This document shows positions 26,446-64,000 of a stretch of 64,000 nt of DNA, piece by piece (position 1 is the stretch's first letter; each line of letters opens with the position of its first letter). The stretch is taken from the NCBI RefSeq assembly GCF_001677475.2, contig NZ_CP015229.1. The stretch is one strand, 5' to 3'. Under the pieces are notes generated by a model, which ran no database searches, had not been told where the DNA came from, and was given only the letters and a program-made list of their open reading frames with translations. A program made the position numbers and the translations under genes. This DNA is from Escherichia coli (lineage in GTDB: Bacteria; Pseudomonadota; Gammaproteobacteria; Enterobacterales; Enterobacteriaceae).

Positions 26446-27945
26446 TTAACTCGCCGTTTCAGGTTTAAACACAATTTCCTGTTTTTCTTCATCTTCCTCG
26501 ACGACTGGCGCAGTGCTGTGAATTTCAGCAACGCGTTTGCGCACACCAAACCAGCCTATAACCAGCAGAATACCGATAATCGGCAGCGCCGCGATGGTAT
26601 AAGTCCCGTTCGGGTAATCGAATGCCATCAGCACCAGGACACTCAGTAAAAACAGTAATGTCAGCCAGGAAGTGAAGGGCGCGCCAGGCAGTTTAAAACT
26701 GACATCCGCTGCTTTGCCTTCTTTAATCGCTTTACGCAGGCGCATCTGGCACACGATGATAAACGCCCATGAAGCGATGATTCCCAGCGACGCGAAGTTC
26801 AACACAATCTCAAATACGCGCGACGGCACCAGATAGTTGAGGAATACGCCGACGACATAAACGACCAGTGTCGCCAGAATCCCGGCATACGGCACATGCT
26901 GACGGCTCATTTTCGCCATAAAACTCGGTGCGGAACCGCCCATCGCCATCGAGCGTAGAATACGTCCGGTGCAGTACAGACCTGAGTTCAGGCTGGAGAG
27001 GGCAGCGGTCAGCACCACAATGTTCATAATGCTGCCGATGTACGGCACACCCAGTTTAGAGAAAAACGTCACGAACGGACTTTGCCCAGCCTGATACGCG
27101 CTCCACGGCAATAACATAACCAGCAACACCACGGAGCCGACGTAAAACAGGCCAATACGCCAAATCACACTGTTAATCGCTTTAGGCACCATGGTCTGCG
27201 GATCTTTACATTCTCCGGCAGCTGTACCCACCATTTCAATGGAGGCAAAAGCAAACACTACGCCCTGAATCAACACCAGAGCAGGAAGCAAACCGTGGGG
27301 GAAGAAGCCGCCATTATCGGTGATTAAATGAAAGCCAGTGGTGTTGCCATCCAGCGGCTGACCACTACCGAGGAACACTGTACCCACGACCAAAAAGGTC
27401 ACAATGGCGAGCACTTTAATAAGCGCAAACCAGAACTCCATCTCCGCAAACCATTTCACACCAATCATATTCATGGTGCCAACGATGGTAAGTGCAGCGA
27501 GCGCAAAGACCCACTGCGGCACGCCGCCAAACGCCCCCCAGTAATGCATATACAGCGCTACAGCGGTGATATCGACAATCCCCGTCATCGCCCAGTTAAT
27601 GAAGTACATCCAGCCTGCAACGTAAGCGGCTTTCTCTCCTAAAAACTCACGGGCATAAGAGACAAAGCTGCCACTGGAAGGGCGATGTAACACCAGCTCA
27701 CCCAATGCACGCAGAATAAAAAACGAAAACAGGCCACATATTAAATAAACCAGTGCCAGCGCAGGACCCGCCATTTGCAGTCGGGCTCCTGCACCTAAAA
27801 ACAAGCCGGTGCCAATCGCGCCGCCAATGGCGATCATCTGCACCTGGCGATTGCCCATCGCTTTGTGATACCCCTCTTCGTGGGCATTAAGCCAGCGGCG
27901 TTTCGCGGCGTGTTGATCTGGAGTGTCGGTGTCGTGTTTACTCAT
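26446..27945 (-). CDS. ansP: L-asparagine permease (APC family)
   Basis: 499 aa from ATG (complement of 27943-27945); polytopic amino acid permease sequence. Confidence 0.92.
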   Translation of the reverse strand: MSKHDTDTPDQHAAKRRWLNAHEEGYHKAMGNRQVQMIAIGGAIGTGLFLGAGARLQMAGPALALVYLICGLFSFFILRALGELVLHRPSSGSFVSYAREFLGEKAAYVAGWMYFINWAMTGIVDITAVALYMHYWGAFGGVPQWVFALAALTIVGTMNMIGVKWFAEMEFWFALIKVLAIVTFLVVGTVFLGSGQPLDGNTTGFHLITDNGGFFPHGLLPALVLIQGVVFAFASIEMVGTAAGECKDPQTMVPKAINSVIWRIGLFYVGSVVLLVMLLPWSAYQAGQSPFVTFFSKLGVPYIGSIMNIVVLTAALSSLNSGLYCTGRILRSMAMGGSAPSFMAKMSRQHVPYAGILATLVVYVVGVFLNYLVPSRVFEIVLNFASLGIIASWAFIIVCQMRLRKAIKEGKAADVSFKLPGAPFTSWLTLLFLLSVLVLMAFDYPNGTYTIAALPIIGILLVIGWFGVRKRVAEIHSTAPVVEEDEEKQEIVFKPETAS

Positions 27946-28882: not shown

Positions 28883-29013
28883 ATGTCATTAAGGAGAATG
28901 ACATCTGGTGAATTAACATTGGCCAGATCGATTTTTGAGAATACAATTGATTATAGCAAGGTATGGATCCACAATGAAAAATATTTGCCTGGTCAAGGGG
29001 AAAGAACAGCGAT
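28883..29013 (+). pseudogene. 5' portion of a host ORF interrupted by the prophage left end
   Basis: ATG 28883 with strong GGGGGAAGGA Shine-Dalgarno; the reading frame runs straight across the Mu-type end at 29014 into phage sequence, so the track ORF 28844..29083 is a host-phage fusion. Confidence 0.45.
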
Positions 29014-29040
29014 TGTATTGATTCACTTGAAGTACGAAAA
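29014..29040 (+). repeat. Prophage left terminal transposase-binding site (L1-like)
   Basis: Begins with 5'-TG; sequence matches the recalled Mu attL terminus. Confidence 0.75.
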
Positions 29041-29352
29041 AAACCGGGAGGACATTGGATTATTCGGGATTTGGCGGGATTAGATTTAGTGGGGCTTGCA
29101 AGCCTGTAGGACAGATTTTAGCCGTTACATCTTGAAACGCGAAAGATTGTTGGAAACAGCTTTTGATTCATTAAAGACACGAAAAGCAATTACTTCACGC
29201 ATCATTTCAAGTACAGCTTCAAAAATGCTTCAAAAACGGTAACAACCAGGCTTTCGGCAAGTGATGTGTGTCAAAAACAATCATCACTGTTTGGGTATCT
29301 TACATATGTAATTACCTAGAGTGAAGTTTATGTCTTAGCTATTACCTGGTTG

Positions 29353-29877
29353 TTATACAGCTTTCTTTACATCGTTTTCTCTTACAGGGAAATTATGTTC
29401 TTTGCCTTCATACTGAGACAAAATCTCTCTCACTTTTTCAGGTGGTAATGCCTGAAGAGTTTGCAGGGTTTTCTGTTGATCCACAGTAATCCCTAATGCC
29501 TCTAATGCCTTATCTTTACTGACAATTGTAGGCATAAGTCCTTTAATCCCTGCTACACGAATGATCTCCACAGCTGCGGCCTGCTCATCTGGTGTTAAGA
29601 AGCTCATTGCATAAATTAGCCTCTCATCAACTGTATGGGCGATTGATGTATGCACTGGTTTATCAGAAAGTGAGGCTCCTTTAATGGCCCTACGTGTTTC
29701 TTCTGGCAGACTGTTGATGTGATACTCATAAGCGACACCTTTCCCACCGTGACGCTGACGTTTTACCCAATCTTCCGCCACAGCTTTCCTGGTAATGTTA
29801 GTCGCCAACTTTGGTACACCAGGCATCCCTTCCAGCTCTTTCGCATTAAACCATTCTTTGATTTCAAAAGACATCAT
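29353..29877 (-). CDS. c: Transposable-phage repressor (Mu c / D108 repressor family)
   Basis: 174 aa, divergent from ner-A-B; N-terminal about 60 aa are roughly 50 percent identical to the N-terminus of the adjacent transposase. Confidence 0.8.
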   Translation of the reverse strand: MMSFEIKEWFNAKELEGMPGVPKLATNITRKAVAEDWVKRQRHGGKGVAYEYHINSLPEETRRAIKGASLSDKPVHTSIAHTVDERLIYAMSFLTPDEQAAAVEIIRVAGIKGLMPTIVSKDKALEALGITVDQQKTLQTLQALPPEKVREILSQYEGKEHNFPVRENDVKKAV

Positions 29878-30062: not shown

Positions 30063-30284
30063 ATGCATATGAATAAAAGAACTAACCGCCAAGATTGGCA
30101 CAGAGCTGACATCGTTGCAGAGCTACGAAAACGCAATATGTCACTAGCTGAATTGGGAAGATCTAATCATCTTTCGTCTTCAACATTAAAAAATGCTTTG
30201 GATAAGAGATATCCGAAAGCGGAGAAAATCATTGCAGATGCACTGGGAATGACACCGCAAGATATTTGGCCGTCTCGATACTAG
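30063..30284 (+). CDS. ner: Ner-family DNA-binding protein (early-operon negative regulator)
   Basis: 73 aa; motifs [14 protein letters not shown] and IWPSRY shared with Mu Ner and E. coli Nlp. Confidence 0.85.
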
Positions 30285-30291: not shown

Positions 30292-32280
30292 ATGAAAGAA
30301 TGGTATACAGCAAAAGAGTTGCTCGGTTTGGCAGGTTTACCAAAGCAAGCCACTAACATTACACGTAAGGCACAAAGAGAAGGCTGGGAGTTCAGGCAGG
30401 TTGCAGGGACTAAAGGTGTATCATTTGAATTCAATATCAAATCATTCCCTGTCGCATTACGTGCTGAAATTCTGTTGCAACAAGGGAGAATTGAAACAAG
30501 CCAGGGGTATTTTGAAATCGCCCGCCCCACGCTGGAAGCCCACGATTACGATCGCGGGGCACTGTGGAGCAAATGGGATAAAGCCAGCGATTCCCAGCGC
30601 AGACTTGCTGAAAAATGGTTGCCTGCAGTTCAGGCCGCAGACGAAATGCTGAACCAGGGGATTTCAACAAAAACGGCTTTTGCGACCGTTGCAGGACATT
30701 ACCAGGTCAGCGCATCCACTTTGCGAGACAAGTATTACCAGGTACAGAAGTTTGCGAAGCCTGACTGGGCGGCTGCACTTGTTGATGGACGTGGTGCATC
30801 TCGTCGCAATGTTCACAAAAGTGAATTTGACGAGGATGCCTGGCAGTTTCTGATTGCAGATTATCTGCGACCGGAAAAACCCGCCTTCCGCAAATGTTAT
30901 GAGCGTCTGGAACTGGCAGCCCGCGAGCATGGCTGGAGTATTCCCTCCCGTGCCACGGCCTTTCGCCGGATTCAGCAACTGGACGAGGCAATGGTTGTTG
31001 CCTGTCGTGAAGGTGAACATGCACTGATGCATCTGATACCGGCACAGCAGCGAACTGTGGAACACCTGGACGCCATGCAGTGGATCAACGGCGACGGTTA
31101 TCTGCATAACGTCTTTGTACGCTGGTTTAACGGTGATGTGATCCGCCCGAAAACATGGTTCTGGCAGGATGTGAAAACCCGAAAAATTCTGGGCTGGCGC
31201 TGCGATGTGAGCGAGAACATTGATTCAATTCGCCTCTCGTTCATGGATGTGGTGACACGCTACGGCATCCCGGAAGATTTTCACATCACCATTGATAACA
31301 CCCGTGGGGCAGCGAATAAATGGCTGACGGGGGGCGCGCCCAATCGTTACCGCTTTAAGGTGAAAGAGGACGATCCAAAGGGACTGTTTTTACTGATGGG
31401 CGCGAAAATGCACTGGACAAGCGTTGTTGCCGGTAAAGGCTGGGGCCAGGCAAAACCTGTTGAACGTGCTTTCGGTGTTGGTGGGCTTGAGGAATACGTT
31501 GATAAGCATCCGGCACTGGCTGGCGCATATACGGGGCCAAATCCGCAGGCAAAACCTGATAACTATGGCGACCGTGCTGTTGATGCAGAGCTGTTTCTGA
31601 AAACCCTTGCTGAAGGTGTGGCGATGTTCAATGCCAGAACAGGCCGTGAAACAGAAATGTGCGGGGGCAAACTCTCGTTTGATGATGTTTTCGAGCGTGA
31701 ATACGCCAGAACGATTGTGCGTAAGCCAACCGAAGAACAAAAACGGATGCTGTTACTGCCTGCCGAAGCGGTGAACGTTTCACGCAAAGGCGAGTTTACG
31801 CTTAAAGTTGGCGGCTCCCTTAAAGGCGCGAAAAACGTTTATTACAACATGGCGTTAATGAATGCAGGCGTGAAAAAAGTTGTGGTCAGGTTTGATCCGC
31901 AGCAGCTACACAGCACAGTTTATTGCTACACCCTGGACGGTCGGTTTATCTGTGAAGCGGAATGTCTGGCACCTGTTGCATTTAATGATGCTGCGGCAGG
32001 CCGTGAATATCGCCGCCGCCAGAAACAACTGAAATCTGCAACTAAAGCAGCCATTAAGGCGCAGAAACAAATGGACGCGCTGGAAGTTGCTGAACTGCTG
32101 CCGCAGATAGCCGAACCAGCAGCACCAGAATCAAGGGTTGTTGGTATTTTCCGGCCTGTGGGTAACACAGTACGGGTTAAATATCGCACCCCCGATGATA
32201 AATACGAACCCGCTCGTGATGAATATCTGAATCAGTCACTGGATATTCTGGAACAGAAAAGACGTAAAAAAGCCATTTAA
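30292..32280 (+). CDS. A: DDE transposase (MuA family)
   Basis: 662 aa; Mu-transposase-like sequence throughout; N-terminal domain shared with the repressor. Confidence 0.93.
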
Positions 32281-32318: not shown

Positions 32319-33278
32319 ATGAATATTTCCGATATTCGCGCAGGACTGCGCACGCTTGTAGACAATGGAGAAACCACGCTGACACGCATCGCCAGTGAAT
32401 CAGGCGTGGCCCTGAGCACAGTCAGTGGTTTTGTGAATGATAAATATAACGGCAACATGGAATCAGTCGGGCGCACACTGGAACGCTGGCTGGAAAACTA
32501 TCACCGCGCAGAAGAACTGCCGGAACCCCCGCGTTTTGTGGAAACTGCAACAGCCCGTCAAATCTGGACAAGTATGCGTTTTGCTAATCTGACCGGAACC
32601 ATTGCTGTTATCTGTGGCAATCCAGGAGTGGGTAAAAGCGAAGCAGCCCGTGAATTTTGTCGCACTAATAATAATGTCTGGATGATCACCATCGCGCCAT
32701 CCCGTGCCAGTACGCTGGAATGTCTGACTGAACTTGCCGAAGAGTTGGGAATGAATAATGCACCCTGTCGCAAAGGGCCGCTTTCCCGTAATCTGCGTCG
32801 CCGCCTGAAAGGGACGCAGGGACTGGTCATTGTTGACGAAGCTGATCACCTTGACACCGAAGCGCTGGAAGAGCTCCGTCTGTTACAGGAGTCCGCCTGT
32901 ATTGGTCTGGTTCTGATGGGGAATCACCGTGTTTATTCAAATATGACCGCTAATGGCGACAGAACAATTGAGTTTGCCCGTCTGTTTTCCCGTATTGCAA
33001 AGCGCACAGCAATTAATAAAACCAAAGAAGACGATGTAAACGCAATTGCGGATGCCTGGCAGATTACCGGGAAAAATGAACGGGAATTATTACAGCAGAT
33101 TGCACAAACGCCTGGTGCGCTCCGCATTATGAATCAAACGCTGCGCCTTGCTGTTATGAATGCCTTCGGTAAAGGCGAACGTGTTAATGAGGATTATCTG
33201 CGTGAGGCTTACAAAGAGTTAGACCAGGACGTTGATGTTTCGATGCTGCTGGGTGTGCAAGGGGATGCTGAATCATGA
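32319..33278 (+). CDS. B: Transposition ATPase / target DNA activator (MuB family)
   Basis: 319 aa; Walker A GNPGVGKS; immediately downstream of A. Confidence 0.9.
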
Positions 33279-33502
33279 TGTCACGGAATATCAAAATGGC
33301 AACGGAAGTAAAGAGCTGGTTACAGGAGCGCGGCAGCCACGTCAACGAATCCTGGCTGGGCGTGGCCCGCCCGGTGCTTGAAATCACCTGCCCACCACCG
33401 GAGCTTGTCAGGAATGCTGTCAGGATTATGGAGCGTAAATCAGGGGTTGCCCGTTCAGTCTGGACGGCCCGCCTTAATGGTTGCCAGATTATCTGGCGTT
33501 AA
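33275..33502 (+). CDS. Hypothetical early protein (positional analogue of Mu Kil)
   Basis: 75 aa; ATGA overlap with B stop; assignment by position only. Confidence 0.4.
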
Positions 33503-33534
33503 TAACGGCTTATTTATTTGTGAGGAATAACAAA

Positions 33535-33804
33535 ATGGCAAAAGTAATCTTTGAATTTAACCGCATGGAAGATGTTGAGTTTCAGAAAAAAGGAGGTTTC
33601 TTTGTAGGAATGAGTGTGCAACTGGAAGAACAGTCTCCTAAGGAGCAAACCGGACCGCATGACGTGATGGCAGTCATTATCAAGAGCATGGCTCCTGAAA
33701 TTATTGAAAAAGCAACCCAGGAGTTGTTGAAGTCAGCCAGAGAACTTGGGCTGGAAGCCGAAGGCGAGTTATTCCGGTATAACCCGGATGCAGCTAAATA
33801 TTAA
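33535..33804 (+). CDS. Hypothetical early protein
   Basis: 89 aa from ATG 33535 with GAGGAA Shine-Dalgarno. Confidence 0.5.
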   Translation: MAKVIFEFNRMEDVEFQKKGGFFVGMSVQLEEQSPKEQTGPHDVMAVIIKSMAPEIIEKATQELLKSARELGLEAEGELFRYNPDAAKY

Positions 33805-33824
33805 TTCGCAAAGGAACGCTGACA

Positions 33825-34244
33825 ATGAAAGCCAAAATCAGAAACGAAATTCAGGCATTAATTCGGATTAAAGAGCGTAATAGCAATGGTGGAGACTTGC
33901 GCGAATTTATTTGCGCGCGCGAAGTTGAGGGATATGGCGAAAAGACTTACCTGATTGCATTCGACCATTACAGCATTTGTGCGCGTTATTGCGGGGAGGC
34001 GGTATTCCGCGCCATTACGTTTGGCAATGCCTTCAATGTGGATTTATGGGAATACGTCATGGACCGCGAATACATCAGCGCGTCAGACCCGGACGCACGG
34101 GAGCAGTGGAAGAACATCTGGCGCGATTACCGGCAAATGGCGAAAGGCTGGACGCAGGGGACGTATTCTTCCCTTGCCCTGAAAGCGGTTCAGCTATCTG
34201 TGCGGCATATGCTGTCGGCACGATTCGAACTCCCGGTGCACTGA
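33825..34244 (+). CDS. Hypothetical early protein
   Basis: 139 aa; operon context. Confidence 0.55.
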   Translation: MKAKIRNEIQALIRIKERNSNGGDLREFICAREVEGYGEKTYLIAFDHYSICARYCGEAVFRAITFGNAFNVDLWEYVMDREYISASDPDAREQWKNIWRDYRQMAKGWTQGTYSSLALKAVQLSVRHMLSARFELPVH

Positions 34245-34260
34245 TAAGGAGGGCATCATC

Positions 34261-34548
34261 ATGATAATCCCTCGCAAAAGATGGTCACGTGAAGACCGGG
34301 AATTTATCGAAGCCAGTGTCGGGAAAATGACAGTTGAAGAAATGGCGAAAAAACTGAACGTTGCCACAAGCGCCCTGCGGGCACATGCCAGAAGGTACGG
34401 AATATCGTTGTGTGTATACAAAATCAGTGAGCACGACAAATATTTGTGTCGAGAACTTTATAAAGAAGGGGTGGCTATTCATGTCATTGCCCAAAAGATG
34501 GAATTAAGCAATCGGGCTGTATCCAGCGTTGTATACAGTGAATATTAA
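34261..34548 (+). CDS. Hypothetical early protein with HTH-like segments
   Basis: 95 aa; two helix-turn-helix-like stretches (MTVEEMAKKLNVATSALRAHARRYG and VAIHVIAQKMELSNRAVSSVVY). Confidence 0.5.
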   Translation: MIIPRKRWSREDREFIEASVGKMTVEEMAKKLNVATSALRAHARRYGISLCVYKISEHDKYLCRELYKEGVAIHVIAQKMELSNRAVSSVVYSEY

Positions 34549-34568
34549 TTAACAGGAGCTTTATTTAT

Positions 34569-35093
34569 ATGGCTAAACCAGCAAAACGAATCAGGAATGC
34601 CGCAGCAGCTTATGTTCCTCAATCCCGCGATGCCGTGGTGTGTGATATTCGCTGGATTGGTGACCTGCAACGCGAAGCGGTACGACTTGAAACGGAAATG
34701 AATGACGCTATTGCTGAAATTACGGAGAAATACGCCTCACGGATTGCGCCGCTTAAAACCCGTATTGAAACCCTTTCAAAAGGCGTTCAGGGGTGGTGTG
34801 AAGCGAACCGTGACGAACTGACGAACGGCGGCAAGGTGAAGACGGCCAACCTGGTAACCGGTGATGTGTCATGGCGTCAGCGCCCACCATCAGTAAGTAT
34901 TCGCGGTGTGGATGCGGTGATGGAAACGCTGGAGCGTCTTGGCCTGCAACGCTTTATTCGCACGAAACAGGAAATCAACAAGGAAGCGATTTTACTGGAA
35001 CCGAAAGCGGTCGCAGGTGTTGCCGGAATTACAGTTAAATCAGGCATTGAAGATTTTTCTATTATTCCGTTTGAACAGGAAGCCGGTATTTAA
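34569..35093 (+). CDS. gam: Host-nuclease inhibitor Gam (Mu Gam family)
   Basis: 174 aa, same length as Mu Gam and matching recalled sequence character. Confidence 0.88.
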   Translation: MAKPAKRIRNAAAAYVPQSRDAVVCDIRWIGDLQREAVRLETEMNDAIAEITEKYASRIAPLKTRIETLSKGVQGWCEANRDELTNGGKVKTANLVTGDVSWRQRPPSVSIRGVDAVMETLERLGLQRFIRTKQEINKEAILLEPKAVAGVAGITVKSGIEDFSIIPFEQEAGI

Positions 35094-35191
35094 TACCACC
35101 ACGAATATTTAATTAGTTCACTTTCTTTTAATTATGGCGCGATGCGTCAGGGGATTGCTCGCGCCTGAATCTGATATACGGGATATAAAAA

Positions 35192-35734
35192 ATGATTAAT
35201 ACAAAAGTTCTGAGCGGCGTCAGCACATTATTACAGGTTTACGGGCGTCTGACCTGCGGCGTACTGGCTGAAAAAATGAAGATGCCACCTTCCTCAATGG
35301 TGTATTTCCTGCGTGATGCGGTTGATGCCGGAGTTCTCACTGAATGCAACGGATTTTATGACGTTCCGCGCCCTCGTCCGACGCCGCCAGTAATACGAAA
35401 CGCAACAACGGAGCACCCCGATGTTGATGATGCTCAATGGTGCGCGTTCCGCCGCTCTTTGCCCTGGCTGGAAGGCAATGCCATTCCGGCACTGGCAAAA
35501 GAATTTGCGACAGGCGTACTGACCTGCGAGTCGGTTTACATCGTTGCTGAAGTGGATGACGATATGTGCAAACAGGGAATGCCCCGTTTTGTGATGGCTT
35601 ATATCGATATCCGGCTGGGTCGTTTTATTTGTGGCTCCAGTGGCTGGAATATCACCGACCACATCCTGCGCTATCTCATTCTTGATTATTCACCAGCTCC
35701 GGCAGCAACACAGGAAGTCAGTGAACATGATTAA
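35192..35734 (+). CDS. Hypothetical early protein
   Basis: 180 aa; no recognisable motif. Confidence 0.55.
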   Translation: MINTKVLSGVSTLLQVYGRLTCGVLAEKMKMPPSSMVYFLRDAVDAGVLTECNGFYDVPRPRPTPPVIRNATTEHPDVDDAQWCAFRRSLPWLEGNAIPALAKEFATGVLTCESVYIVAEVDDDMCKQGMPRFVMAYIDIRLGRFICGSSGWNITDHILRYLILDYSPAPAATQEVSEHD

Positions 35735-35909
35735 GTCAACTGGCTTTGTCCTGCTGGTTGGCACCTGCGGGAATGATGCCTGCGATGCCATTCCGGTAAC
35801 GGAAAAAATCTGGCCCACAGAGCAGGCATGTATGCAGGTGATGGAGCGCATACAAAAACGTTATCCCAGTGAAATCTTTTATTGCGAAGAGGTATTACGA
35901 AATGAATAA
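35727..35909 (+). CDS. Hypothetical small protein with N-terminal hydrophobic segment
   Basis: 60 aa from ATG 35727 overlapping the preceding stop; MIKSTGFVLLVGTCGNDAC resembles a signal/lipoprotein-like N-terminus but is not a canonical lipobox. Confidence 0.4.
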   Translation: MIKSTGFVLLVGTCGNDACDAIPVTEKIWPTEQACMQVMERIQKRYPSEIFYCEEVLRNE

Positions 35910-36228
35910 ACCAGAGAATAAAGAAATGAAATTCACACCAGTTGATATTGATGGCGTCATGGCTAATTTAAAGATGCTGGAACGTATGCACGATATCGTT
36001 AAATATGGTATTGAGCATGACCTCACCGCCAGAGAAGTCCGGAGCATTATTAACCGTGAAATGAACCAGGTGGAAGCTGCCGTGGCGCTACAAAATGAAG
36101 CAGCCCGCGAGGAATACATTCGTCGCAGGCTGGGACTATCAAATAAAGATATTCTTACGGATGCTCAGATGGCTGAGGCTTTTGATATTCATCAGAATCT
36201 TGGTCTAACAAACGGATGGTATCAGTGA
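35902..36228 (+). CDS. Hypothetical early protein
   Basis: 108 aa from ATG 35902 with GAGGT Shine-Dalgarno. Confidence 0.5.
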   Translation: MNKPENKEMKFTPVDIDGVMANLKMLERMHDIVKYGIEHDLTAREVRSIINREMNQVEAAVALQNEAAREEYIRRRLGLSNKDILTDAQMAEAFDIHQNLGLTNGWYQ

Positions 36229-36421
36229 TTAGCTGTGATATTTGCAGAATGGGATTATTCGTTGTTCTCAATGCCGGAGCCTCTGCCGCTCCGCTTGCTG
36301 CGGCTTCGAGGATCGTTTTGCCTTCCTCTGCGGTAATCAGCCCCTTTCTGACAAGGAGTATCAGCAACCTTGAAGCAATGACATACCCTGCAACATCATA
36401 AGGCTGTTCACTGTTTTTCAT
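36155..36421 (-). CDS. Hypothetical antisense-oriented small protein
   Basis: 88 aa from ATG (complement of 36419-36421) with GAGGA Shine-Dalgarno 7 nt upstream on the reverse strand; 3' end overlaps the preceding plus-strand ORF by 74 nt. Confidence 0.35.
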   Translation of the reverse strand: MKNSEQPYDVAGYVIASRLLILLVRKGLITAEEGKTILEAAASGAAEAPALRTTNNPILQISQLITDTIRLLDQDSDEYQKPQPSEHP

Positions 36422-36494
36422 AAAAAGTTTCCTCTGTTTAGTGAGTGGATTCTGGCGGTGTTGCCGCACCGCCCCCTTTTCTGGAGGTACGATA

Positions 36495-37046
36495 ATGAAT
36501 CGCACATCCCTGATTAAATTAATTCATGTCGCCCGTCGTGATCTACAACTCGACGATGACACTTACCGCGCCTTTCTGGTGCAGTGCACAGGCAAGACCA
36601 GCTGCCGCGAGCTGTCCGTTGCACAACTGGAACGTGTGCTCGATGCCATGAAAGAGTGCGGTTTTAAAAAGCAGAAAAAACATCCCCGCCGTCGCTTTAA
36701 GGGGCATGTCACACCGCGCGAGAAGATTTATAAAATCTGGCAGCAGATGTTTCAGGATGGCTTTATCGCTGATGGCAGCGATGTCGCGCTGGACAAATAC
36801 GTTGCACGCCTGACGGCCAGACGTAATGGCGGTCAGGGGGTTTCCACGCTGGCCTGGTGTCACGGGGAATCGTTGCAGGTTGTGCTCGAAACGCTCAAGC
36901 AGTGGCACATGCGCTGCATCCGGGAAGCCTTTGCCCGACATGGTGTGCCGTTACCTGCAAGCCCATCCGGGCGGGAACTACGCGGATATGATGCACTGAC
37001 CAGTGCATATGCCCGCGCACGAAACAGCGGGAGAATTGCTGTATGA
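36495..37046 (+). CDS. gemA: GemA-family protein (Mu gp16-like)
   Basis: 183 aa from ATG 36495 with GGAGGT Shine-Dalgarno; position upstream of mor. Confidence 0.8.
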   Translation: MNRTSLIKLIHVARRDLQLDDDTYRAFLVQCTGKTSCRELSVAQLERVLDAMKECGFKKQKKHPRRRFKGHVTPREKIYKIWQQMFQDGFIADGSDVALDKYVARLTARRNGGQGVSTLAWCHGESLQVVLETLKQWHMRCIREAFARHGVPLPASPSGRELRGYDALTSAYARARNSGRIAV

Positions 37047-37492
37047 AACAGATGAAAGAGCAGGATTTATTCGAAGACCTTCGGGACGACAGCGTTCTGG
37101 AATATCTTCATGATTACCAGGAAAACACCGCTTATCCGGCGTTACTTTCTGAACTGAACGCACTGCTGCGTAAAGAGCTGGCCCGGATTGGCGCAGACCC
37201 TGCTCATTCCCTTGAGCTGGTTGTGGCGATTTGTCGCCATATCGGCGGGATGCAGGTTTATGTTCCGAGGGGGAATATTCTGGAGAATCTTGTCCGGGAT
37301 ATGCGTATCTGGCGTGATTTTAACGGTCATAATATTCCTGAACTGGTTCAGCGTTACGGGGTGACGTATAAAACCGTCTACAAGGCCATCAAACGGATGC
37401 GACGTCTGGAGCGCAATAAATACCAGCCGGATTTGTTTTACCCCTCCCCGAACCTGCCTCACCCCGTTCGTCGTCCACCACGACGCCCTTAA
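37043..37492 (+). CDS. mor: Mor transcription activator (Mor/C family)
   Basis: 149 aa; sequence closely matches recalled Mu Mor (DLFEDLRDDSVLEYL, VVAICRHIGGMQVYVPRG, YKAIKRMRRL). Confidence 0.88.
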   Translation: MKQMKEQDLFEDLRDDSVLEYLHDYQENTAYPALLSELNALLRKELARIGADPAHSLELVVAICRHIGGMQVYVPRGNILENLVRDMRIWRDFNGHNIPELVQRYGVTYKTVYKAIKRMRRLERNKYQPDLFYPSPNLPHPVRRPPRRP

Positions 37493-37500
37493 TCAATGAA

Positions 37501-37522
37501 GCCGGTAAATCCGGCTTTTTTT
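37501..37522 (+). terminator. Rho-independent terminator after mor
   Basis: GCCGG-TAAAT-CCGGC hairpin followed by a run of seven T. Confidence 0.6.
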
Positions 37523-37577
37523 ATGCCTCCGGCACCATGAAGCAGACCACGTTTAAATCTGCTTCACAGGTGCTTTT

Positions 37578-38174
37578 ATGGAAAATCAAAAATTCTCCCC
37601 GGCCTTTGAACATGCGCTGAATTTCATTCTGCGTCCCGATATCGAAGGCGTCTATGCCAATGACCCCACTGACCGTGGCGGTGAAACCAAATACGGCATT
37701 TCTGACCGCCGCGACGGTGTGACTGACGGCAAAACCGATGTCAACGGCGACGGCAAACCGGATACCCGCATCAGGGATTTAACCCGCGAACAGGTTGCTC
37801 AGATTTACTGGCGCGATTACTGGCTGCCTGCCGGATGTGACCAGTGGCCTGATGGCGTGGCGATGTTTGTGTTCGATGCGGCGGTTCAGCATGGCGTTAA
37901 AAAAGCTATCAGGATTTTGCAGGAAGCCGCGGATGTGGATGCTGACGGCATCATCGGCCCCCGTACCCGTAAGGCCGTGAGCCTGTCCACCCCGGACTGG
38001 CTGCTGGCCCGCTGCATTGTCCGTCGTTCCCGCTTTTATGCCGACATCATCAAGTCCAAACCCGCCCAGGGCAAATACCTGAACGGCTGGTTTAACCGCA
38101 TGGAAAAGCTGACCGACGCCTGTCTGGAAATCATCGATACCCCTCCAGGCATCATGTCCGCCACGCGGGGGTGA
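37578..38174 (+). CDS. Endolysin, glycoside hydrolase family 108 with C-terminal peptidoglycan-binding domain
   Basis: 198 aa; motif EGVYANDPTDRGGETKYGIS matches the GH108 family signature EGGY.NDP.DPGGETN.GI; DGIIGPRT in the C-terminal domain. Confidence 0.8.
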   Translation: MENQKFSPAFEHALNFILRPDIEGVYANDPTDRGGETKYGISDRRDGVTDGKTDVNGDGKPDTRIRDLTREQVAQIYWRDYWLPAGCDQWPDGVAMFVFDAAVQHGVKKAIRILQEAADVDADGIIGPRTRKAVSLSTPDWLLARCIVRRSRFYADIIKSKPAQGKYLNGWFNRMEKLTDACLEIIDTPPGIMSATRG

Positions 38175-38175
38175 T

Positions 38176-38427
38176 ATGGGCAAAGGCTGGGATGCCTCTC
38201 TGAAAGCCGGGCGGCGCGACCGCCTGCGTCAGGAGGTTCTGCACCGCATGGCCGGAGGTCCGCCCCCGAAACCGCTGGACTATACCGGCCATGACGGCAC
38301 ACACGCCAGCTACTACATGCGTGGCTGGAACTCCGTGGATACACGGGACATTTTCTGGCAGTGCCAGAAGTACAGGGAAAAATTCAATGTGGAAAAAGGT
38401 TATGAACAAAATTTTAAAACTGTGTGA
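38176..38427 (+). CDS. Hypothetical protein in lysis region
   Basis: 83 aa; starts 2 nt after the endolysin stop; overlaps the next ORF. Confidence 0.4.
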   Translation: MGKGWDASLKAGRRDRLRQEVLHRMAGGPPPKPLDYTGHDGTHASYYMRGWNSVDTRDIFWQCQKYREKFNVEKGYEQNFKTV

Positions 38428-38812
38428 CTGGCTGATTTGTTCCCGACTGATGAGAACCCCATGGCCGCTGGCCGGACTGACGCTCTGTATGTTCATCATC
38501 AGCATGTTATGTGGCTGGCGATCGTTCGTGTTGATGTTGTTGTCCTTTGCCGGGGTGGTGTTGTTTTCATACAGCGCAAGCCTCGGGAATGTGCCATTTC
38601 GCCTGCTGCCTGAGGTCCGTTACCGGGCTTTTGGTCGCCACATCATCGTGTGGTCATGGGTGGTCTGGGCGCTGGGATATTTCTGCTGCGTCTTCAGCAC
38701 GCTGATGATGATGTCACCGGCACACCCGGTGTTCTGGCTGTGTGGTGGCGGTTGCGGCGCTCTGCTCTGTCTTCAGCGTTATCTGTATGGAGGTTTCCCG
38801 TGGATCCGTTAA
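38402..38812 (+). CDS. Polytopic small membrane protein (holin-like or exclusion-like)
   Basis: 136 aa from ATG 38402; three to four hydrophobic helices; lysis-region context. Confidence 0.5.
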   Translation: MNKILKLCDWLICSRLMRTPWPLAGLTLCMFIISMLCGWRSFVLMLLSFAGVVLFSYSASLGNVPFRLLPEVRYRAFGRHIIVWSWVVWALGYFCCVFSTLMMMSPAHPVFWLCGGGCGALLCLQRYLYGGFPWIR

Positions 38813-39408
38813 CCCTTTCAGGCATCGCCTCCGTTCTGCTGAAAGCCGGGCCGGGGCTGATTCGTTCCGTCGGGCGCTGGTTTGGTGGCGGTACATCTGC
38901 CGCCGCTGACTCGGTGGCCGGTATGGTGGAAAGCGTCCGGGAAAGCCTGCCGGTGGCTGAACAGCAGCGCGTTCTGGAACAGAAGATGGCGATGTTACCA
39001 CCGGAACAACAGATACAACTGGAAACCCTGAAAATTCAGCTGCAACAACTGGAGGTGGAGCGGCAGAAGCTGGTGCTGGCTGACCAGCAGGCCGCACACC
39101 ACGAACAGCAGGAAACCATCCGCAATGGTGACAACGCCACGGACAGCTATGTGCGCCAGACGCGCCCGCTGCTGGCCCGCCTTTCCTGTTACAGCGGTCT
39201 GGCCTATGTGCTGTTGCTCTCCTGCGGCCAGATTGCCGGAGCCGTTGCCGGTGCCAGAGGTATCACGCTGCATATGCCAACACCGGACTGGGATATCACG
39301 CTGATGTTGCTTACCCCTGCGCTGGGCTATCTCGGCGTGCGAACCCTTGACGGCTTTGCCCGTTACAGCAAATCAAGCCGTCACAAAATGTCTGCGGGGC
39401 TGAAATGA
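38800..39408 (+). CDS. Lysis-associated membrane protein with coiled-coil N-terminus and C-terminal transmembrane segments
   Basis: About 202 aa if initiated at GTG 38800 (overlaps preceding stop); Q/L-rich heptad region then two hydrophobic helices; start uncertain (internal ATGs at 38920 and 38984). Confidence 0.45.
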   Translation: MDPLTLSGIASVLLKAGPGLIRSVGRWFGGGTSAAADSVAGMVESVRESLPVAEQQRVLEQKMAMLPPEQQIQLETLKIQLQQLEVERQKLVLADQQAAHHEQQETIRNGDNATDSYVRQTRPLLARLSCYSGLAYVLLLSCGQIAGAVAGARGITLHMPTPDWDITLMLLTPALGYLGVRTLDGFARYSKSSRHKMSAGLK

Positions 39409-39632
39409 CCGATGAAATCGACCGCATCAGTGAAGTGGTTCTGAACGAGCGTCAGTGCGTCGTTAAAGCCTGGCAGACGCGGACAAAAGAAGCGCCCCAC
39501 AGTCGGGGCTTCTGCAATGACTGCGGGAACGTTATTCCGGCACAGCGCCTTGCGGCGCTGCCGGATGTGGTGACCTGTATTGACTGCCAGCAGATGCGTG
39601 AGCGCAGGAGGAAGACATGTCCTGGGAAGTGA
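39405..39632 (+). CDS. TraR/DksA-family C4 zinc-finger protein
   Basis: 75 aa; CNDCGNVIP...CIDCQ four-cysteine motif characteristic of the DksA/TraR zinc finger. Confidence 0.7.
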   Translation: MTDEIDRISEVVLNERQCVVKAWQTRTKEAPHSRGFCNDCGNVIPAQRLAALPDVVTCIDCQQMRERRRKTCPGK

Positions 39633-39922
39633 TCCGGGCCAACTGGCCCATTTTATGGGCGCTGTTGATGACAGCGATAAATTTGCTTCAGCTGATTCTG
39701 GCAAAGACTTACGTCAAACGCGAAGAGTTTGATTCGCTGCGTTCCCGTGTGTCGGTGATGGAAGGTCTGGTGAATCAGCTCCCCGACCGCAATGAATTTC
39801 ACCGCCTGCAACTGGATATCAGCAACCTGCGGGGCGAAATCCGGGAACTGGGGCCATCCATACGCCAGGTTTCCCGCATCAGTGATTTGTTATTAGAGAA
39901 CGAGTTAAAGGTAAAAAATTAA
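39617..39922 (+). CDS. Membrane-anchored coiled-coil protein (i-spanin/Rz-like)
   Basis: 101 aa; N-terminal transmembrane helix (ILWALLMTAINLLQLILA) followed by coiled-coil-like sequence. Confidence 0.5.
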   Translation: MSWEVIRANWPILWALLMTAINLLQLILAKTYVKREEFDSLRSRVSVMEGLVNQLPDRNEFHRLQLDISNLRGEIRELGPSIRQVSRISDLLLENELKVKN

Positions 39923-40215
39923 TGGCGATGAAAGAGATCCTCACTGAAGACCGTCGTCTGGTGTTGCTGCGTTCCCTGCTGGACTGTGGCGACAGCGCGA
40001 ATGAATCCGTGTTGCAGACCTGCCTTCAGGCTTATGGTCATAAGGTATCCCGTGATGTGGTGCGCACCCAGCTTGCATGGCTTCGCGAGCAGGGGTTGGT
40101 TCGTCTGTCTGATGTGGGCGGCTGTTACGTGGCTGAAATCACCGGCAGCGGCGAGGATGTGGCAAACGGCCTGTCCAGCGTTCCGGGCGTTAAAAAACCC
40201 CGTGCGAGGGGCTGA
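39922..40215 (+). CDS. Hypothetical phage protein
   Basis: 97 aa; translationally coupled to the preceding ORF. Confidence 0.5.
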   Translation: MAMKEILTEDRRLVLLRSLLDCGDSANESVLQTCLQAYGHKVSRDVVRTQLAWLREQGLVRLSDVGGCYVAEITGSGEDVANGLSSVPGVKKPRARG

Positions 40216-40217
40216 GC

Positions 40218-40517
40218 ATGGCCCGAAAACTGAAGCCGTTAAGTCGCGGAGAACGGGCCGTCGTGCGGCAACTGGCGTACTGCCTTGTGCTGGCAGATAT
40301 TGAGCAAAACGCCATTGTCCGTGCATACGAACAACAGACCGGAAAGCCCTGGAGCCCGGATGCACCGGACAGCCCCATGAAACGCTTTCTGCGGTCATCA
40401 CCGGCATGTGCGCGGCTGTGGAAGCTGCTGGGTAAGGATATCCGGTCCGTTCGCGAAGAAATATACGCCGGTCTGAAAACACCGGGAACTGAAGACGGGG
40501 GCCGTCGTGAACCGTAA
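40218..40517 (+). CDS. Hypothetical phage protein
   Basis: 99 aa. Confidence 0.5.
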   Translation: MARKLKPLSRGERAVVRQLAYCLVLADIEQNAIVRAYEQQTGKPWSPDAPDSPMKRFLRSSPACARLWKLLGKDIRSVREEIYAGLKTPGTEDGGRREP

Positions 40518-40654
40518 AAAGAATCCGATAAGTAAAGCGTCCCGTGATGAACTCCGCCGTCTGGCGCACAACCTGACATGGCGGGAAATCCAGAGCGGCG
40601 CGCTGAAATCTGCATACGAAAGTTTACAGCGTAGTGAGCAACAGGAGGGCAAAC

Positions 40655-41236
40655 ATGGAAAATGAACAACGCCCCACCCGTGGCCGTCTTTCCAAAGTGG
40701 ATTTACTCCCGGACAGCATCCGGGAGCAGTTGCATCAGATGCTGCGGGAAAAGCGGCACACGCAGGAAGAAATCCGCGAAGCCATCAACGCCCTGATTGA
40801 CGAACACAACCTGCCGGAAGAGATGCAGTTAAGCCGGACGGGTTTAAACCGTTATGCCAGCCGCATGGAAAAAGTCGGGGCCAAAATCCGCGCCTCCCGC
40901 GAAATGGCCGAAGTCTGGGCGGCAAAGCTGGGTTCCGCGCCAACATCAGACGTCGGCAGGCTGCTGATGGAGTTTGTAAAAACGCTGGCCTTTGAAACGT
41001 CCATGTCGATGGCAGAAGACGACAAACCTGTAGCACCAAAGGCGCTGGGGCAACTGGCGCTGGTTGCCCAGCGTCTGGAAGCGGCAGCCATGACCAGCCA
41101 TAAACGCGAGAAAGCGATCCGCGATGCGTTTGCACAGGAGATGGCTGAGAAAACCGAAGAGCTGGTCAGAACGGGTGGTCTGTCAGGCGGTGCGGCTGAC
41201 ACCATCAAACGAGACATTCTGGGGATTAGCGCATGA
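40655..41236 (+). CDS. Mu gp27-like protein (putative terminase small subunit)
   Basis: 193 aa from ATG 40655 with AGGAGGG Shine-Dalgarno; directly upstream of the large terminase and overlapping its start. Confidence 0.6.
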   Translation: MENEQRPTRGRLSKVDLLPDSIREQLHQMLREKRHTQEEIREAINALIDEHNLPEEMQLSRTGLNRYASRMEKVGAKIRASREMAEVWAAKLGSAPTSDVGRLLMEFVKTLAFETSMSMAEDDKPVAPKALGQLALVAQRLEAAAMTSHKREKAIRDAFAQEMAEKTEELVRTGGLSGGAADTIKRDILGISA

Positions 41237-42768
41237 CACAGATGAACACGTTCAGTGAATCCGATGTTCTGCTGCCGTATCAGAAACGCTGGGTGGCGGA
41301 TGATTCAAAACTGAAAATCGCCGAGAAATCACGCCGTACCGGGTTAACCTGGGCGGAAGCGGCAGATGCAGCACTGACCGCATCACTGAAGAAGGAAAAC
41401 GGCGGGCGCGATCACTTTTATATCGGTTCGAATAAGGAGATGGCCCGCGAATTTATCGACGCCGTAGCGATGTGGGCGAAAGCGTTTAATGCGGCAGCGG
41501 AAGAAATCCGCGAGGAAGTGATCACCGACGAAGACATGGACATTCTGACGTTCGTCGTGTACTTCGCCAGCGGTTTTAAGGTCAAGGCGCTGTCCAGCAA
41601 TCCGGGCAACATTCGCGGGATGCAGGGGAATGTCACCATCGACGAAGCGGCGTTTCATGAAAAACTGGATGAGGTACTCAAGGCGGTCACACCACTGACC
41701 ACGTGGGGCGGTAAGGTTCGCCTTATCTCCACCCATGACGGCGTGGACAACCCGTTTAACCAGCTGATTCAGGAGAGCCGCGCAGGCAAAAAAGATTACC
41801 GTATTCACACCATCACGCTGGATGACGCCTGCAGTGACGGGCTGTACCGGCGTATCTGTCAGGTACGCGGCATGGAGTGGTCACCGGAGGCCGAGGCGGA
41901 ATGGAAAGAAGGCCTGCTGCGAAATACCGCCACCCGCGAAGACGCCCTGGAGGAATATTACTGCGTCCCGAAAAACGGCGGCGGCACGTATATCCCCCGC
42001 TCAATGCGTGAACGTGCAGCCCGTGGCACCGGAAAAGTGTTGCGCTTTACCGGCACACCGGAATTTAACGCACTGACGGAAAGCCAGCGCCGGGCAGATA
42101 TCCGGGAATGGCTGGAAACGGTGGTGCGCCCTGAACTGGAAAAACTCCCACAGAACCTGCGCCACTGTCTGGGGGAAGACTTTGCGCGTTCGGGTGACCT
42201 GACTGTGCTGGCCCCGGTGACGGTGAACGACGACACCACCCGCGAGGTGCCGTTCCTGGTTGAGCTTGCCAATGTGCCGTTTAAACAGCAGGAGCAGGTA
42301 CTGTTCTGGCTTTGCGATCGTCTGCCCCGTCGTGACGGCATCAAAATGGATGCGCGGGGGAATGGTCAGTATCTGGCAGAACAGGCGGCGGAGCGGTACG
42401 GCGACGAGGTGGAACAGGTGATGCTGTCCGTGGCGTTTTACCGTGAAAACATGCCCCGTTTCCGTGCGGCGTTTGAAGATGATGAGCTGATCCTTCCGAA
42501 GCATGAAGACGTGATCAATGACCTCGGGGCCATTCAGTTACTGCGTGGCGTTCCCGGCATTGATGATTCACGAACCAGAGGCAGCGACGGTCACAAACGT
42601 CACGGCGACGCCGCTGTGGCCATTTTCCTGGGCTTCCTTGCCAGTAAAGATGACTGCCACCGTTACGAACTGCACCGTCTGAACCGCCCGGCGAAACCGG
42701 AAGAACGCAACGCGCGCCGCCAGCTGAAGCTGACGCGCGGCCTGAAAAATGAGGGAGGTTTACTGTGA
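41233..42768 (+). CDS. Terminase large subunit (Mu gp28 family)
   Basis: 511 aa; position and sequence character. Confidence 0.88.
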   Translation: MTQMNTFSESDVLLPYQKRWVADDSKLKIAEKSRRTGLTWAEAADAALTASLKKENGGRDHFYIGSNKEMAREFIDAVAMWAKAFNAAAEEIREEVITDEDMDILTFVVYFASGFKVKALSSNPGNIRGMQGNVTIDEAAFHEKLDEVLKAVTPLTTWGGKVRLISTHDGVDNPFNQLIQESRAGKKDYRIHTITLDDACSDGLYRRICQVRGMEWSPEAEAEWKEGLLRNTATREDALEEYYCVPKNGGGTYIPRSMRERAARGTGKVLRFTGTPEFNALTESQRRADIREWLETVVRPELEKLPQNLRHCLGEDFARSGDLTVLAPVTVNDDTTREVPFLVELANVPFKQQEQVLFWLCDRLPRRDGIKMDARGNGQYLAEQAAERYGDEVEQVMLSVAFYRENMPRFRAAFEDDELILPKHEDVINDLGAIQLLRGVPGIDDSRTRGSDGHKRHGDAAVAIFLGFLASKDDCHRYELHRLNRPAKPEERNARRQLKLTRGLKNEGGLL

Positions 42769-44336
42769 ACCAGAAACAACAGGCCGGGGCCGCACGCCGT
42801 CTGCTGAACCCGGCAACCGGTGAGGAAGACACGCTGAAAAAAGAGGCGCTCAACGAAGCACAGGCCCGTCCGCGTCAGGCTGGCGTGCGTCCGGCCTCGC
42901 CGGGCATCAGCATCGCCTCCGGGCTGAATCCCGGCAGGCTGGCAGGCATTCTGCGCAATGCCGCCAACGGTATCACGCGTGATTTTTTTATCCTTGCCGA
43001 AGAGATGGAAGAACGCGATTTGCATTACGCCTCGGTGCTGCGCACCCGCAAGCTGACGGTGGCGGGTATTGAACCGGTGGTGGTGGCTGCCAGTGATGAC
43101 GATGCCGACGTACAGCTGGCGGATGCCATACGTGCGCTGATGGAAGCCCCGCAAATCCCCGAGCTGATGTTTGATTTGCTCGACGGGCTGGGAAAAGGCG
43201 TGGCGGTCTGTGAAATTTTGTGGAACACCCGCAACAACCACTGGGTGCCCCGTGATTATGAGTGGGTTGATCCCCGTTTTCTGAAAGCCGAAAAGCCCAC
43301 TCTGCGCCGGTTCCGCCTGCTGACTGACGATGAACCGGTGGATGGCGTACCGCTGACACCGGGAAAATTCATTGTTCACCAGCCGCGTCTGAAATCCGGT
43401 CTGCCGCTGCGTAACGGTCTGGCCCGTCTGGTGGCTGTGATGTATATGCTGAAATCCTTTACCGTGCGTGACTGGTGGGCATTTGCGGAAAAATTCGGCA
43501 TTCCGGTTACGGTGGGGAAATACGGTCCCAACGCCACGGAGGAGCAAATCCGCGTGCTGATTGATGCGATTGCCTCCATTGCCTCAGATGCCGGGTGTGC
43601 CATTCCGCAGTCCATGCAACTGGAGATGCAGGAAACCGCCAGCCGGAATAACGGCGGCGCGCTGTTCCGTGAAATGGCTGAATGGTGCGATGCGCAAATC
43701 AGTAAAGCCGTACTGGGGCAGACCATGACCACAGATAATGGCAGTTCGCGTTCACAGGCGGACGTGCACAATCAGGTGCGCATGGACATTGTGCGCTGGG
43801 ACGCGCGACAGCTGGCTAACACGCTGAATGAATATCTGGTGCGTCCCTACATCGAGGCCAACTACGGGCCACAGGCGCACTATCCCCGTGTTGTTCTGCG
43901 TATCAGTGAAGCCGAAGATCTGAAGGCGCTGACTGATGCTCTGGTGCCACTGATTGACCGGGGGATGCGGGTTCAGGAATCGGAGCTGCGGGATCGGTTC
44001 GGCCTGGCGGAACCGGACGAAGGGGCTGATGTTCTGCATCCGGTGTCTGCCGGAATGTCAGGTGATATGGCGATGAACCACGAGCGCGTCGCCCTGAACC
44101 GGGAACACCCCGACGAACTGGCACAGATGGTGGATGATGCCCTGCGTGACTGGCAGAAAACCGGCGAGGCGTTCACAAACCCGGTGCTGACACTGGCGCA
44201 GGAATGCGACAGTTTTGATGACTTTCTGAAACGCCTGCCTGAGCTTCAGGAAACGCTGAACGCGGACGACTTTGCCCTGCAACTGGCGGAGGTGTGCTTT
44301 AAGGCCCGTGCGCTGGGAGACACTGGTCATGCGTGA
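42765..44336 (+). CDS. Portal protein (Mu gp29 family)
   Basis: 523 aa; follows terminase with ATGA overlap. Confidence 0.88.
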   Translation: MNQKQQAGAARRLLNPATGEEDTLKKEALNEAQARPRQAGVRPASPGISIASGLNPGRLAGILRNAANGITRDFFILAEEMEERDLHYASVLRTRKLTVAGIEPVVVAASDDDADVQLADAIRALMEAPQIPELMFDLLDGLGKGVAVCEILWNTRNNHWVPRDYEWVDPRFLKAEKPTLRRFRLLTDDEPVDGVPLTPGKFIVHQPRLKSGLPLRNGLARLVAVMYMLKSFTVRDWWAFAEKFGIPVTVGKYGPNATEEQIRVLIDAIASIASDAGCAIPQSMQLEMQETASRNNGGALFREMAEWCDAQISKAVLGQTMTTDNGSSRSQADVHNQVRMDIVRWDARQLANTLNEYLVRPYIEANYGPQAHYPRVVLRISEAEDLKALTDALVPLIDRGMRVQESELRDRFGLAEPDEGADVLHPVSAGMSGDMAMNHERVALNREHPDELAQMVDDALRDWQKTGEAFTNPVLTLAQECDSFDDFLKRLPELQETLNADDFALQLAEVCFKARALGDTGHA

Positions 44337-45093: not shown

Positions 45094-45235
45094 CCCTCCC
45101 GCCGTAAATCCCCCTGAAACGCATCAGAAACGCGTTTTTTATTCTGATGGCGTGAATGTGCATTCTGACGTTTTTGAAGATGCTGTGGCGTTTTTGAAGG
45201 GGTTTTGAAGGGGGTATTTCCCCGTTTTCAGTGAA

Positions 45236-45257
45236 GCCGGTAAATCCGGCTTTTTTT
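45236..45257 (+). terminator. Rho-independent terminator after F; same sequence as the one after mor
   Basis: GCCGG-TAAAT-CCGGC plus seven T; 26 bp identical to 37497-37522. Confidence 0.6.
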
Positions 45258-45306
45258 CTGCCTTCCGCATACTGACCGTCGGTAACCCCAGACGACGGAG
45301 ACTGAC

Positions 45307-46263: not shown

Positions 46264-46270
46264 GTAACAC

Positions 46271-47176: not shown

Positions 47177-47200
47177 CCCGTCATCCGTAATCTGTAACCC

Positions 47201-47236
47201 GCAGTTAAAAGGCGCTGCGAATGCCCTTTTAACTGC
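47201..47236 (+). terminator. Stem-loop after the major capsid gene (terminator or attenuator candidate)
   Basis: GCAGTTAAAAGG...CCCTTTTAACTGC inverted repeat 25 bp after the capsid stop, followed by the palindrome GCCTTTTAAAAGGC. Confidence 0.4.
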
Positions 47237-47254
47237 CTTTTAAAAGGCAGAGTC

Positions 47255-49337: not shown

Positions 49338-49341
49338 ATCT

Positions 49342-50817: not shown

Positions 50818-50826
50818 GGGGGCCGC

Positions 50827-51183: not shown

Positions 51184-51184
51184 C

Positions 51185-58469: not shown

Positions 58470-58472
58470 TTT

Positions 58473-59468: not shown

Positions 59469-59482
59469 TTAAGGAGAAAATA

Positions 59483-63999: not shown

Positions 64000-64000
64000 A

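Follow-up and report, generated by a model that had tools for sequence, protein, structure and literature searches.

An Escherichia coli locus with a D108/Mu-type insertion in a predicted Tpe-family toxin gene and a composite of two transposable phages

The window, a stretch of 64,000 nucleotides of Escherichia coli DNA, contains a short reading frame that begins as a host gene and ends inside a Mu-like phage. We asked which gene had been interrupted, what kind of element had interrupted it, and where the rest of the gene lies. A preliminary description of this DNA had proposed that a well-initiated host gene was truncated by a Mu-type insertion, which is not site-specific, and that the remainder of the gene should be found beyond the right end of the prophage. 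Disruption of a gene by a Mu-like phage is routine, and both the kind of phage and the toxin family described below are already known. The analysis also brings to light a Mu-like lineage that is little known and has different termini, as well as an apparent swap of end cassettes directly after the mom terminator, and the window shows that two co-resident, partly identical transposable prophages could link a chromosome and a phage-plasmid.

To define the interrupted gene, we compared the window with uninterrupted E. coli genomes. The window was collinear with AR_0077 and MEI003 up to ...GAACAGCGAT at 29013 and diverged from 29014, where it aligned to base 1 of phage D108, giving a left junction of GAACAGCGAT joined to TGTATTG. 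At the homologous ATG, the uninterrupted strains carry an annotated 531-nt CDS encoding 176 aa. The host fragment matched its 5' end at 130 of 131 nucleotides and 43 of 43 residues with the same synteny, an agreement well past anything chance would give, and the first 43 codons of MEI003 were identical to those of the window. The preliminary description was therefore accurate at this boundary: ATG 28883 has GGGGGAAGGAT upstream, its N-terminal 43-aa peptide does match an intact gene in uninterrupted strains, and the frame runs into the phage terminus at 29014 after exactly 43 host codons and 2 nt. The third base (T) of codon 44 (ATT) is the first phage base, and the fusion ORF stops at a TAG at 29081-29083 (Table 1). 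Its small size and the lack of any domain match in a Pfam search of the 43-codon stump would suit a chance or unrelated small ORF with no truncated gene behind it, but the agreement with an annotated, widely conserved gene in the same synteny already refutes that reading, to which we give practically no credence.

In AR_0077 and MEI003, the locus reads pqqU, yncE, ansP, a small ORF, the 531-nt CDS, an overlapping 357-nt CDS, vgrG, a DcrB-related gene, and an RHS gene, with ansP annotated at the position homologous to that in the window. Among 5,426 complete E. coli genomes, 786 matched a 714-bp probe ending at 29013; every match was chromosomal, and in 229 of the 786 it covered at least 80% of the probe. 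The left junction itself was present in an independent short-read assembly, Logan ERR10434734, which contained the exact 66-aa fusion peptide. The contig carrying it (L003), in which a 499-aa AA_permease gene was called, was 100% identical to window 22562-33303 and stopped at 33303.

Table 1. Features of the interrupted locus, the phage element, and its right flank (positions in the window).
Feature	Coordinates	Strand	Basis or remark
ansP (L-asparagine permease)	26446..27945	-	Host gene upstream of the interrupted locus
Fusion ORF	28883..29083	+	66 codons: 43 host codons and 2 nt, then 22 phage-derived codons and TAG stop
Host-derived 5' fragment of the 176-aa effector gene	28883..29013	+	Alignment to uninterrupted genomes and family alignment
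Host pentanucleotide GCGAT abutting attL	29009..29013	.	Expected 5-bp Mu target copy
Mu/D108-type left end (attL)	29014..29200	+	Begins TGTATTGATTCACTTGAAGTACGAAAA; aligns from D108 base 1
Repressor c (174 aa, D108-type)	29353..29877	-	HTH_Tnp_Mu_1 domain; D108 annotation
ner (73 aa)	30063..30284	+	HTH_35 domain; D108 annotation
Transposase A (662 aa, MuA-type)	30292..32280	+	Pfam HTH_Tnp_Mu_1/2, DDE_2, Mu-transpos_C
Transposition protein B (319 aa)	32319..33278	+	Phage-MuB_C; AAA+ protein; contig L003 ends at 33303, just past B
Late-gene region common to both lineages (mosaic)	33300..62617	+	Sliding identity to STEC1575 and RM9088; would contain the crossover
com, upstream of mom	62962..63147		PF10122 Com in L014 and L009
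mom (231 aa)	63098..63793	+	PF25680 Mom in L014 and L009; translation
Right end (attR) of the second, non-Mu-type lineage	63837..63919	+	Three TTCAAGATA sites; ends ...GCGCGCTTTA
Interior of 188-aa hypothetical gene of a P1-like IncY phage-plasmid	63920..64000	-	Not the effector remainder

Homologues of the intact 176-aa product, 41-69% identical, occur across Enterobacterales; NCBI names most of them "type IV secretion protein Rhs", and they are without Pfam domains. Searches of Pfam and NCBIfam with the single 176-aa protein returned no match, and the structural relative was reached by the family profile only. In hmmsearch, this profile hit a single solved structure, that of the Pseudomonas aeruginosa VgrG2b effector domain (PDB 6H56, E = 5.3e-35), over a span that includes the HExxH region. 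In the 29-member family alignment, H82, E83, and H86 are invariant within the motif HExxHVWQ, and an MEQQ motif at residues 122-125 is conserved; weak matches to eCIS_core/DUF4157 were found in 22 of the 29 members. An AlphaFold model of the 176-aa protein had a pLDDT of 91.7, and a Foldseek search with this model returned 6H56 as its sole significant match (E 2.6e-9, TM 0.65, 32% identity).

The C-terminal domain of VgrG2b is an antibacterial metallopeptidase that acts in the periplasm and is neutralized by PA0261; it has been grouped with Acinetobacter baylyi Tpe1-Tpi1, and its immunity homologues in Enterobacteriaceae are predicted to be lipoproteins (Wood et al. 2019, PMC6899460). By homology and modelled fold, the intact gene is a stand-alone homologue of this VgrG2b C-terminal/Tpe1 periplasmic toxin and a predicted zinc metallopeptidase. 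The overlapping downstream gene encodes a 118-aa protein that starts with MKRFFLFFFLSGC, a signal followed by an LSGC lipobox, and that scored 30.9 bits, below the cut-off of 43, against NCBIfam NF045617 ("putative T6SS immunity periplasmic lipoprotein"); the lipobox is in keeping with the published prediction for Enterobacteriaceae. The association of the toxin gene with type VI secretion comes from its genomic neighbors, vgrG, the DcrB-like gene, and PAAR-RHS. We therefore read the intact locus as a probable Tpe-family toxin gene followed by a candidate gene for lipoprotein immunity and by a spike module of vgrG and PAAR-RHS.

The likeness to VgrG2b and Tpe1-Tpi1 thus covers homology, fold, the HExxH motif, an adjacent vgrG, and a downstream immunity candidate that would be targeted to the envelope. 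Unlike VgrG2b, in which the toxin is a C-terminal extension of VgrG, the predicted toxin here is a stand-alone protein of 176 aa, which in this strain breaks off at residue 43. Both HExxH (residues 82-86) and MEQQ lie downstream of residue 43 and are absent from the stump. Since the HExxH motif follows the break, the truncated product should be inactive, and we infer that the insertion also uncoupled the toxin gene from the candidate immunity gene that overlaps it translationally.

The element that caused the break is of D108/Mu type at its left end. From 29014, a 4-kb stretch containing c, ner, A, and B was 93.5% identical to D108, and the Mu-type binding-site pattern occurred once in the window, as an L1-like site at 29022. 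An exact match to the 174-aa repressor was present in 187 blocks of the assembly collection, with at least 10 different host contexts among the places listed, and in all nine of the sequences read (L031-L038 and L040) host DNA was joined directly to TGTATTGATTCAC.... Among the 5,426 complete E. coli genomes, 271 carried the D108-type left end of the window. The identical attL was also present in STEC1575, and other D108-type left ends in complete genomes lay beside yehR, an L,D-transpeptidase gene, pduA, ssuA, and others. The finished STEC1575 prophage is 33,972 bp long, with an attL of TGTATTG..., a classical attR ending in ...TTTCGCGTTTTTCGTGCGCCGCTTCA (...CGCCGCTTCA), and a 5-bp duplication, TTGCA. 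The target consensus of Mu is N-Y-(G/C)-R-N, which we take the host pentamer GCGAT at attL to fit.

The occurrence of the same repressor and attL at 10 or more host loci, together with the 5-bp duplication in a finished relative, supports the non-site-specific, Mu-type insertion that had been proposed. A D108/Mu-type phage transposed non-site-specifically into the chromosomal gene just downstream of ansP, after codon 43, at GCGAT. The element resembles D108 and Mu (and SfMu) in its left terminus, in the gene order c-ner-A-B, in its non-specific insertion, in the duplication seen in its finished relative, and in the fit of its target. It differs from them in a right end that is not Mu-type and in its late region, which belongs to a group of Mu-like prophages widespread in E. 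coli (GH108 endolysin, DUF3486, DUF935, and others). Ahead of com and mom, the window element showed neither gin nor an invertible segment.

A classical Mu attR, with ...CA-3' and R1-R3 sites, had no match in the window, and from this missing consensus the right end had been assumed to lie outside it. Related prophages instead place the terminus inside the window, at 63919. Their similarity to the window was lost either at 63836 or at ~63920, and seven independent junctions (the window and L014, counted as one; VL40; L009; L010; L012/13; STEC346; and STEC388) shared ...TTTTGCGCGCTTTA followed by different host genes. Because all seven diverge after ...TTTA, we set the terminus at 63919. An alternative terminus of ...TTTAT, considered because five of the junctions are followed by T, was rejected since three finished genomes have A, T, or C after ...TTTA. 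The last 83 bp of the element contain TTCAAGATA sites on the minus strand starting at 63902, 63880, and 63845, and no TTCAAGATA site was found at the left end of the window element.

The right junction, GCGCGCTTTA joined to TATACCGCTCG, does not lead back to the toxin gene. The 81 bp at 63920-64000 matched pNADC1036IncYphage and about 500 further plasmids of 90-118 kb at 100% identity; in these plasmids they form the interior of the 188-aa gene. In these P1-like IncY phage-plasmids, the gene lies between a sit-like lytic transglycosylase and the ash/icd/ant immunity regions, in a neighborhood that runs from the transglycosylase to an SH3 protein, ash, icd, ant, kilA, and repL. Unlike those plasmids, which are separate replicons, the window holds only these 81 bp of the plasmid, joined to a phage copy that is anchored in the chromosome. 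The flanks outside the element ends were GCGAT on the left versus TATA/TATAC on the right, with no target-site duplication, and the sequence past 63919 differed from the expected remainder, GCGAT(A/G)ACCCCAAACGG.... This copy thus does not have the matching Mu right end and 5-bp duplication found in STEC1575. Of the proposed truncation by Mu-type insertion, the 5' stump, the left end, and the non-specific insertion held up. The expectation that the remainder of the host gene lies beyond the right end did not hold for the end present in the window, at 63919.

The plasmid-phage junction also occurs elsewhere. In GCA_018683295.1, a contig (L014) starting at the equivalent of 62618 was 100% identical to window 62618-64000. 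The insertion of a plasmid-borne TTCAAGATA-type phage inside the 188-aa gene creates a 110-aa fusion ORF (window 63871-64000, minus strand; also L014/L041 and L042-L045), which was present in at least nine contigs from two NCBI assemblies and from Logan ERR10434848, SRR11608754, and SRR3929499. Its recurrence in several samples shows that this nesting of a phage inside a phage-plasmid is in stable circulation.

We then examined which phages carry the attR of the window. Exactly five of the 5,426 complete E. coli genomes had it: RM9088, FDAARGOS_943, STEC346, VL40, and STEC388. The same five alone had a left end of TATGACTAGGTAATTTATTCAAGATA..., with three TTCAAGATA sites and a 695-aa transposase. 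The termini of this second lineage read 5'-TATGACTAGG...GCGCGCTTTA-3', with three TTCAAGATA sites at each end (window 63837-63919; L019 4851-5070; L016 ~4210-4400; L021, RM9088). They are thus of the form TA...TA rather than the TG...CA of Mu, and the lineage has an apparent target duplication of 4 bp (TAAG, TTCA, and ATTC) versus the 5 bp of Mu. None of 50,697 deposited phage records matched its attL/repressor region. The lineage supplies the com, mom, attR, and TTCAAGATA repeats of the window, which lacks the lineage's own attL (TATGACTAGG...), repressor, and 695-aa transposase. In the finished genomes examined, an attR of the 63919 type was never paired with a D108-type attL.

The point at which some related prophages part from the window, 63836/63837, lies directly after the mom terminator hairpin. 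An identical Mom protein is followed there either by a classical attR ending in ...CGCCGCTTCA (L011 and L015) or by the TTCAAGATA-type attR (the window, L009, L010, L012, and L014). It looks as though the whole end cassette has been exchanged at this fixed point.

Among the five genomes, VL40 carries a second-lineage phage at codon 7 of vgrG, after MSTGLRF (L004, 4111-6006), so that another T6SS spike locus has been struck. In FDAARGOS_943, the two prophage ends lie ~880 kb apart, a large rearrangement in a finished genome. The STEC388 prophage at fliH (L055, 1938500-1976500) is cut by IS66 and IS26, with the matching attL 913 kb away. STEC388 was considered as a precedent for phage-phage recombination because of its distant ends, and was rejected because IS66 and IS26 account for the cut.

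To determine how the two ends of the window element relate to each other, we mapped its identity to STEC1575 and RM9088 in 500-bp steps. Positions 29014-32000 were 97.4-100% identical to STEC1575 and had zero similarity to RM9088, positions 60000-63919 were 98.4-100% identical to RM9088, and the late genes between them resembled both phages. Similarity to the RM9088-type lineage first appeared at 33014, and contig L003 stops ~290 bp later. The left 3 kb (attL, c, ner, and A) is therefore D108-type, and the right end (com, mom, and attR) is 100% second-lineage. The 34.9-kb element at 29014-63919 is a composite of two transposable phages and not the product of one transposition.

A sample other than the source of the window appears to hold both kinds of right end. 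The Logan contigs L044 and L045 end 64 nt past the 110-aa ORF, which is ~30 nt inside the sequence shared at 63836/63837. Logan assemblies use k = 31, so ~30 nt corresponds to k minus 1; the stop therefore marks a graph branch at 63836/63837, which implies that both attR types were present in one sample. By its recurrence in several samples, the plasmid with the second phage is in circulation, and its co-residence with a classical-attR phage is seen outside the source of the window.

Taken together, the most convincing account, which we consider very probable, is a D108/Mu-type insertion in a Tpe-family toxin gene within a two-phage composite that is joined to a P1-like plasmid. The source strain would carry two related prophages with near-identical late genes, one chromosomal and one plasmid-borne. 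A single crossover in the shared late region would account for the mismatch of the ends as well as for that of the flanks. Such a crossover could have occurred in the cell by RecA-type recombination, leaving a ~95-kb plasmid integrated between two reciprocal hybrid prophages, or it could be an in-silico switch during assembly, that is, a chimera. Cellular recombination and an assembly switch appear roughly equally likely, and short-read graphs are identical under the two scenarios. That the join is real, with D108-type and TTCAAGATA-end prophages recombined through ~29 kb of late genes and the ~95-kb phage-plasmid integrated between reciprocal hybrids, is a serious though tentative possibility. 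Each hybrid would then have mismatched transposition ends and would presumably be locked in place.

Under either option, the remainder of the toxin gene would follow a classical ...CGCCGCTTCA attR and GCGAT outside the window, with a predicted junction of GCCGCTTCA joined to GCGAT(A/G)ACCCCAAACGG, and the plasmid-side attL would be found at CATTCAGCGGGTATA joined to TATGACTAGGTAA. We infer that the strain also has either the reciprocal counterpart of this hybrid or a chromosomal prophage that is intact and separate. Neither junction of the window was found in finished genomes of the complete E. coli and species-representative collections. The predicted attR-remainder junction had no match in the species-representative genomes, a result that is uninformative since the left junction of the window was also missing from that set. 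Searches for the remainder through the exact 133-aa products (two alleles) and the 118-aa immunity protein returned only IS-bearing, decayed, or intact loci. If the link is real, a P1-like plasmid could be integrated, and both phages immobilized, by this route; if it is an artefact, the window marks a misjoin that would lead annotation of the genome astray.

Two explanations that involve a single phage, and one that involves a hybrid, have to be set against the two-phage composite. One ordinary Mu-type prophage, inserted once and followed immediately past its right end by the remainder of the host gene, agrees with the textbook Mu-type left junction and with STEC1575, which shows just such a simple insertion with a 5-bp duplication, and it is probably the ancestral state in the strain. 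For the window as given, however, it is contradicted by plasmid DNA directly after 63919, by the GCGAT versus TATA(C) flanks, and by an attR type that goes unpaired with D108-type left ends in the finished genomes examined, which makes it extremely improbable. Replicative transposition between a chromosome and a plasmid yields a cointegrate in which a phage copy has chromosome on one side and plasmid on the other. A Mu-mediated replicon fusion, with two identical phage copies around the plasmid, would therefore give the junction pattern expected here, with chromosome to the left and plasmid to the right of one copy. Each copy in such a fusion needs the attL and attR of one phage, but the ends of this element come from different lineages. 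In addition, the plasmid-phage junction exists by itself in several unrelated samples and so is older than any fusion. Since both ends must come from the same phage, a cointegrate is unlikely, and we place it only slightly above the single ordinary prophage. A single functional hybrid phage is conceivable if a D108-type transposase can act on a TTCAAGATA-type end, but a rearrangement would still have to be invoked for the discordant flanks.

The chromosome record of ST2747 also contains P1-like genes (L054, 2120061-2144141), which include an intact 188-aa gene and lie directly beside lambdoid prophage tail genes. This arrangement could be an old misassembly, or it could reflect integration or recombination between homologous tail-fibre sequences. 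ST2747 was set aside as uninformative.

The same effector gene is broken in other ways elsewhere in E. coli. In many genomes, an ISAs1-family IS encoding a 378-aa DDE transposase lies in the gene after ...GAACAGCGA, with a 9-bp duplication (L023 2560-4010, and also L024-L030) that corresponds to window ~29004-29012. The contigs L005-L007, which start with CAGCGATGACC..., were considered as attR-side contigs of the Mu insertion and were rejected because this IS and its 9-bp duplication explain their breaks. The 133-aa "remainder" product left by the IS is indexed in 80 blocks. Other decayed alleles carry an upstream deletion, a premature stop, or frameshifts (L046/L047, L048, L049, and L052). 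The exact 118-aa immunity allele is indexed in 8,334 blocks, and the intact arrangement is very common. These observations suggest that the effector gene has been lost repeatedly while immunity was kept. The toxin gene has repeatedly become a pseudogene, through an IS, through deletions and frameshifts, and here through a phage, beside an immunity gene that is extremely widespread, a pattern that fits the decay of orphan effectors with retention of immunity. The IS site is 1 bp from the Mu-type insertion point, so that two unrelated elements have struck almost the same nucleotide.
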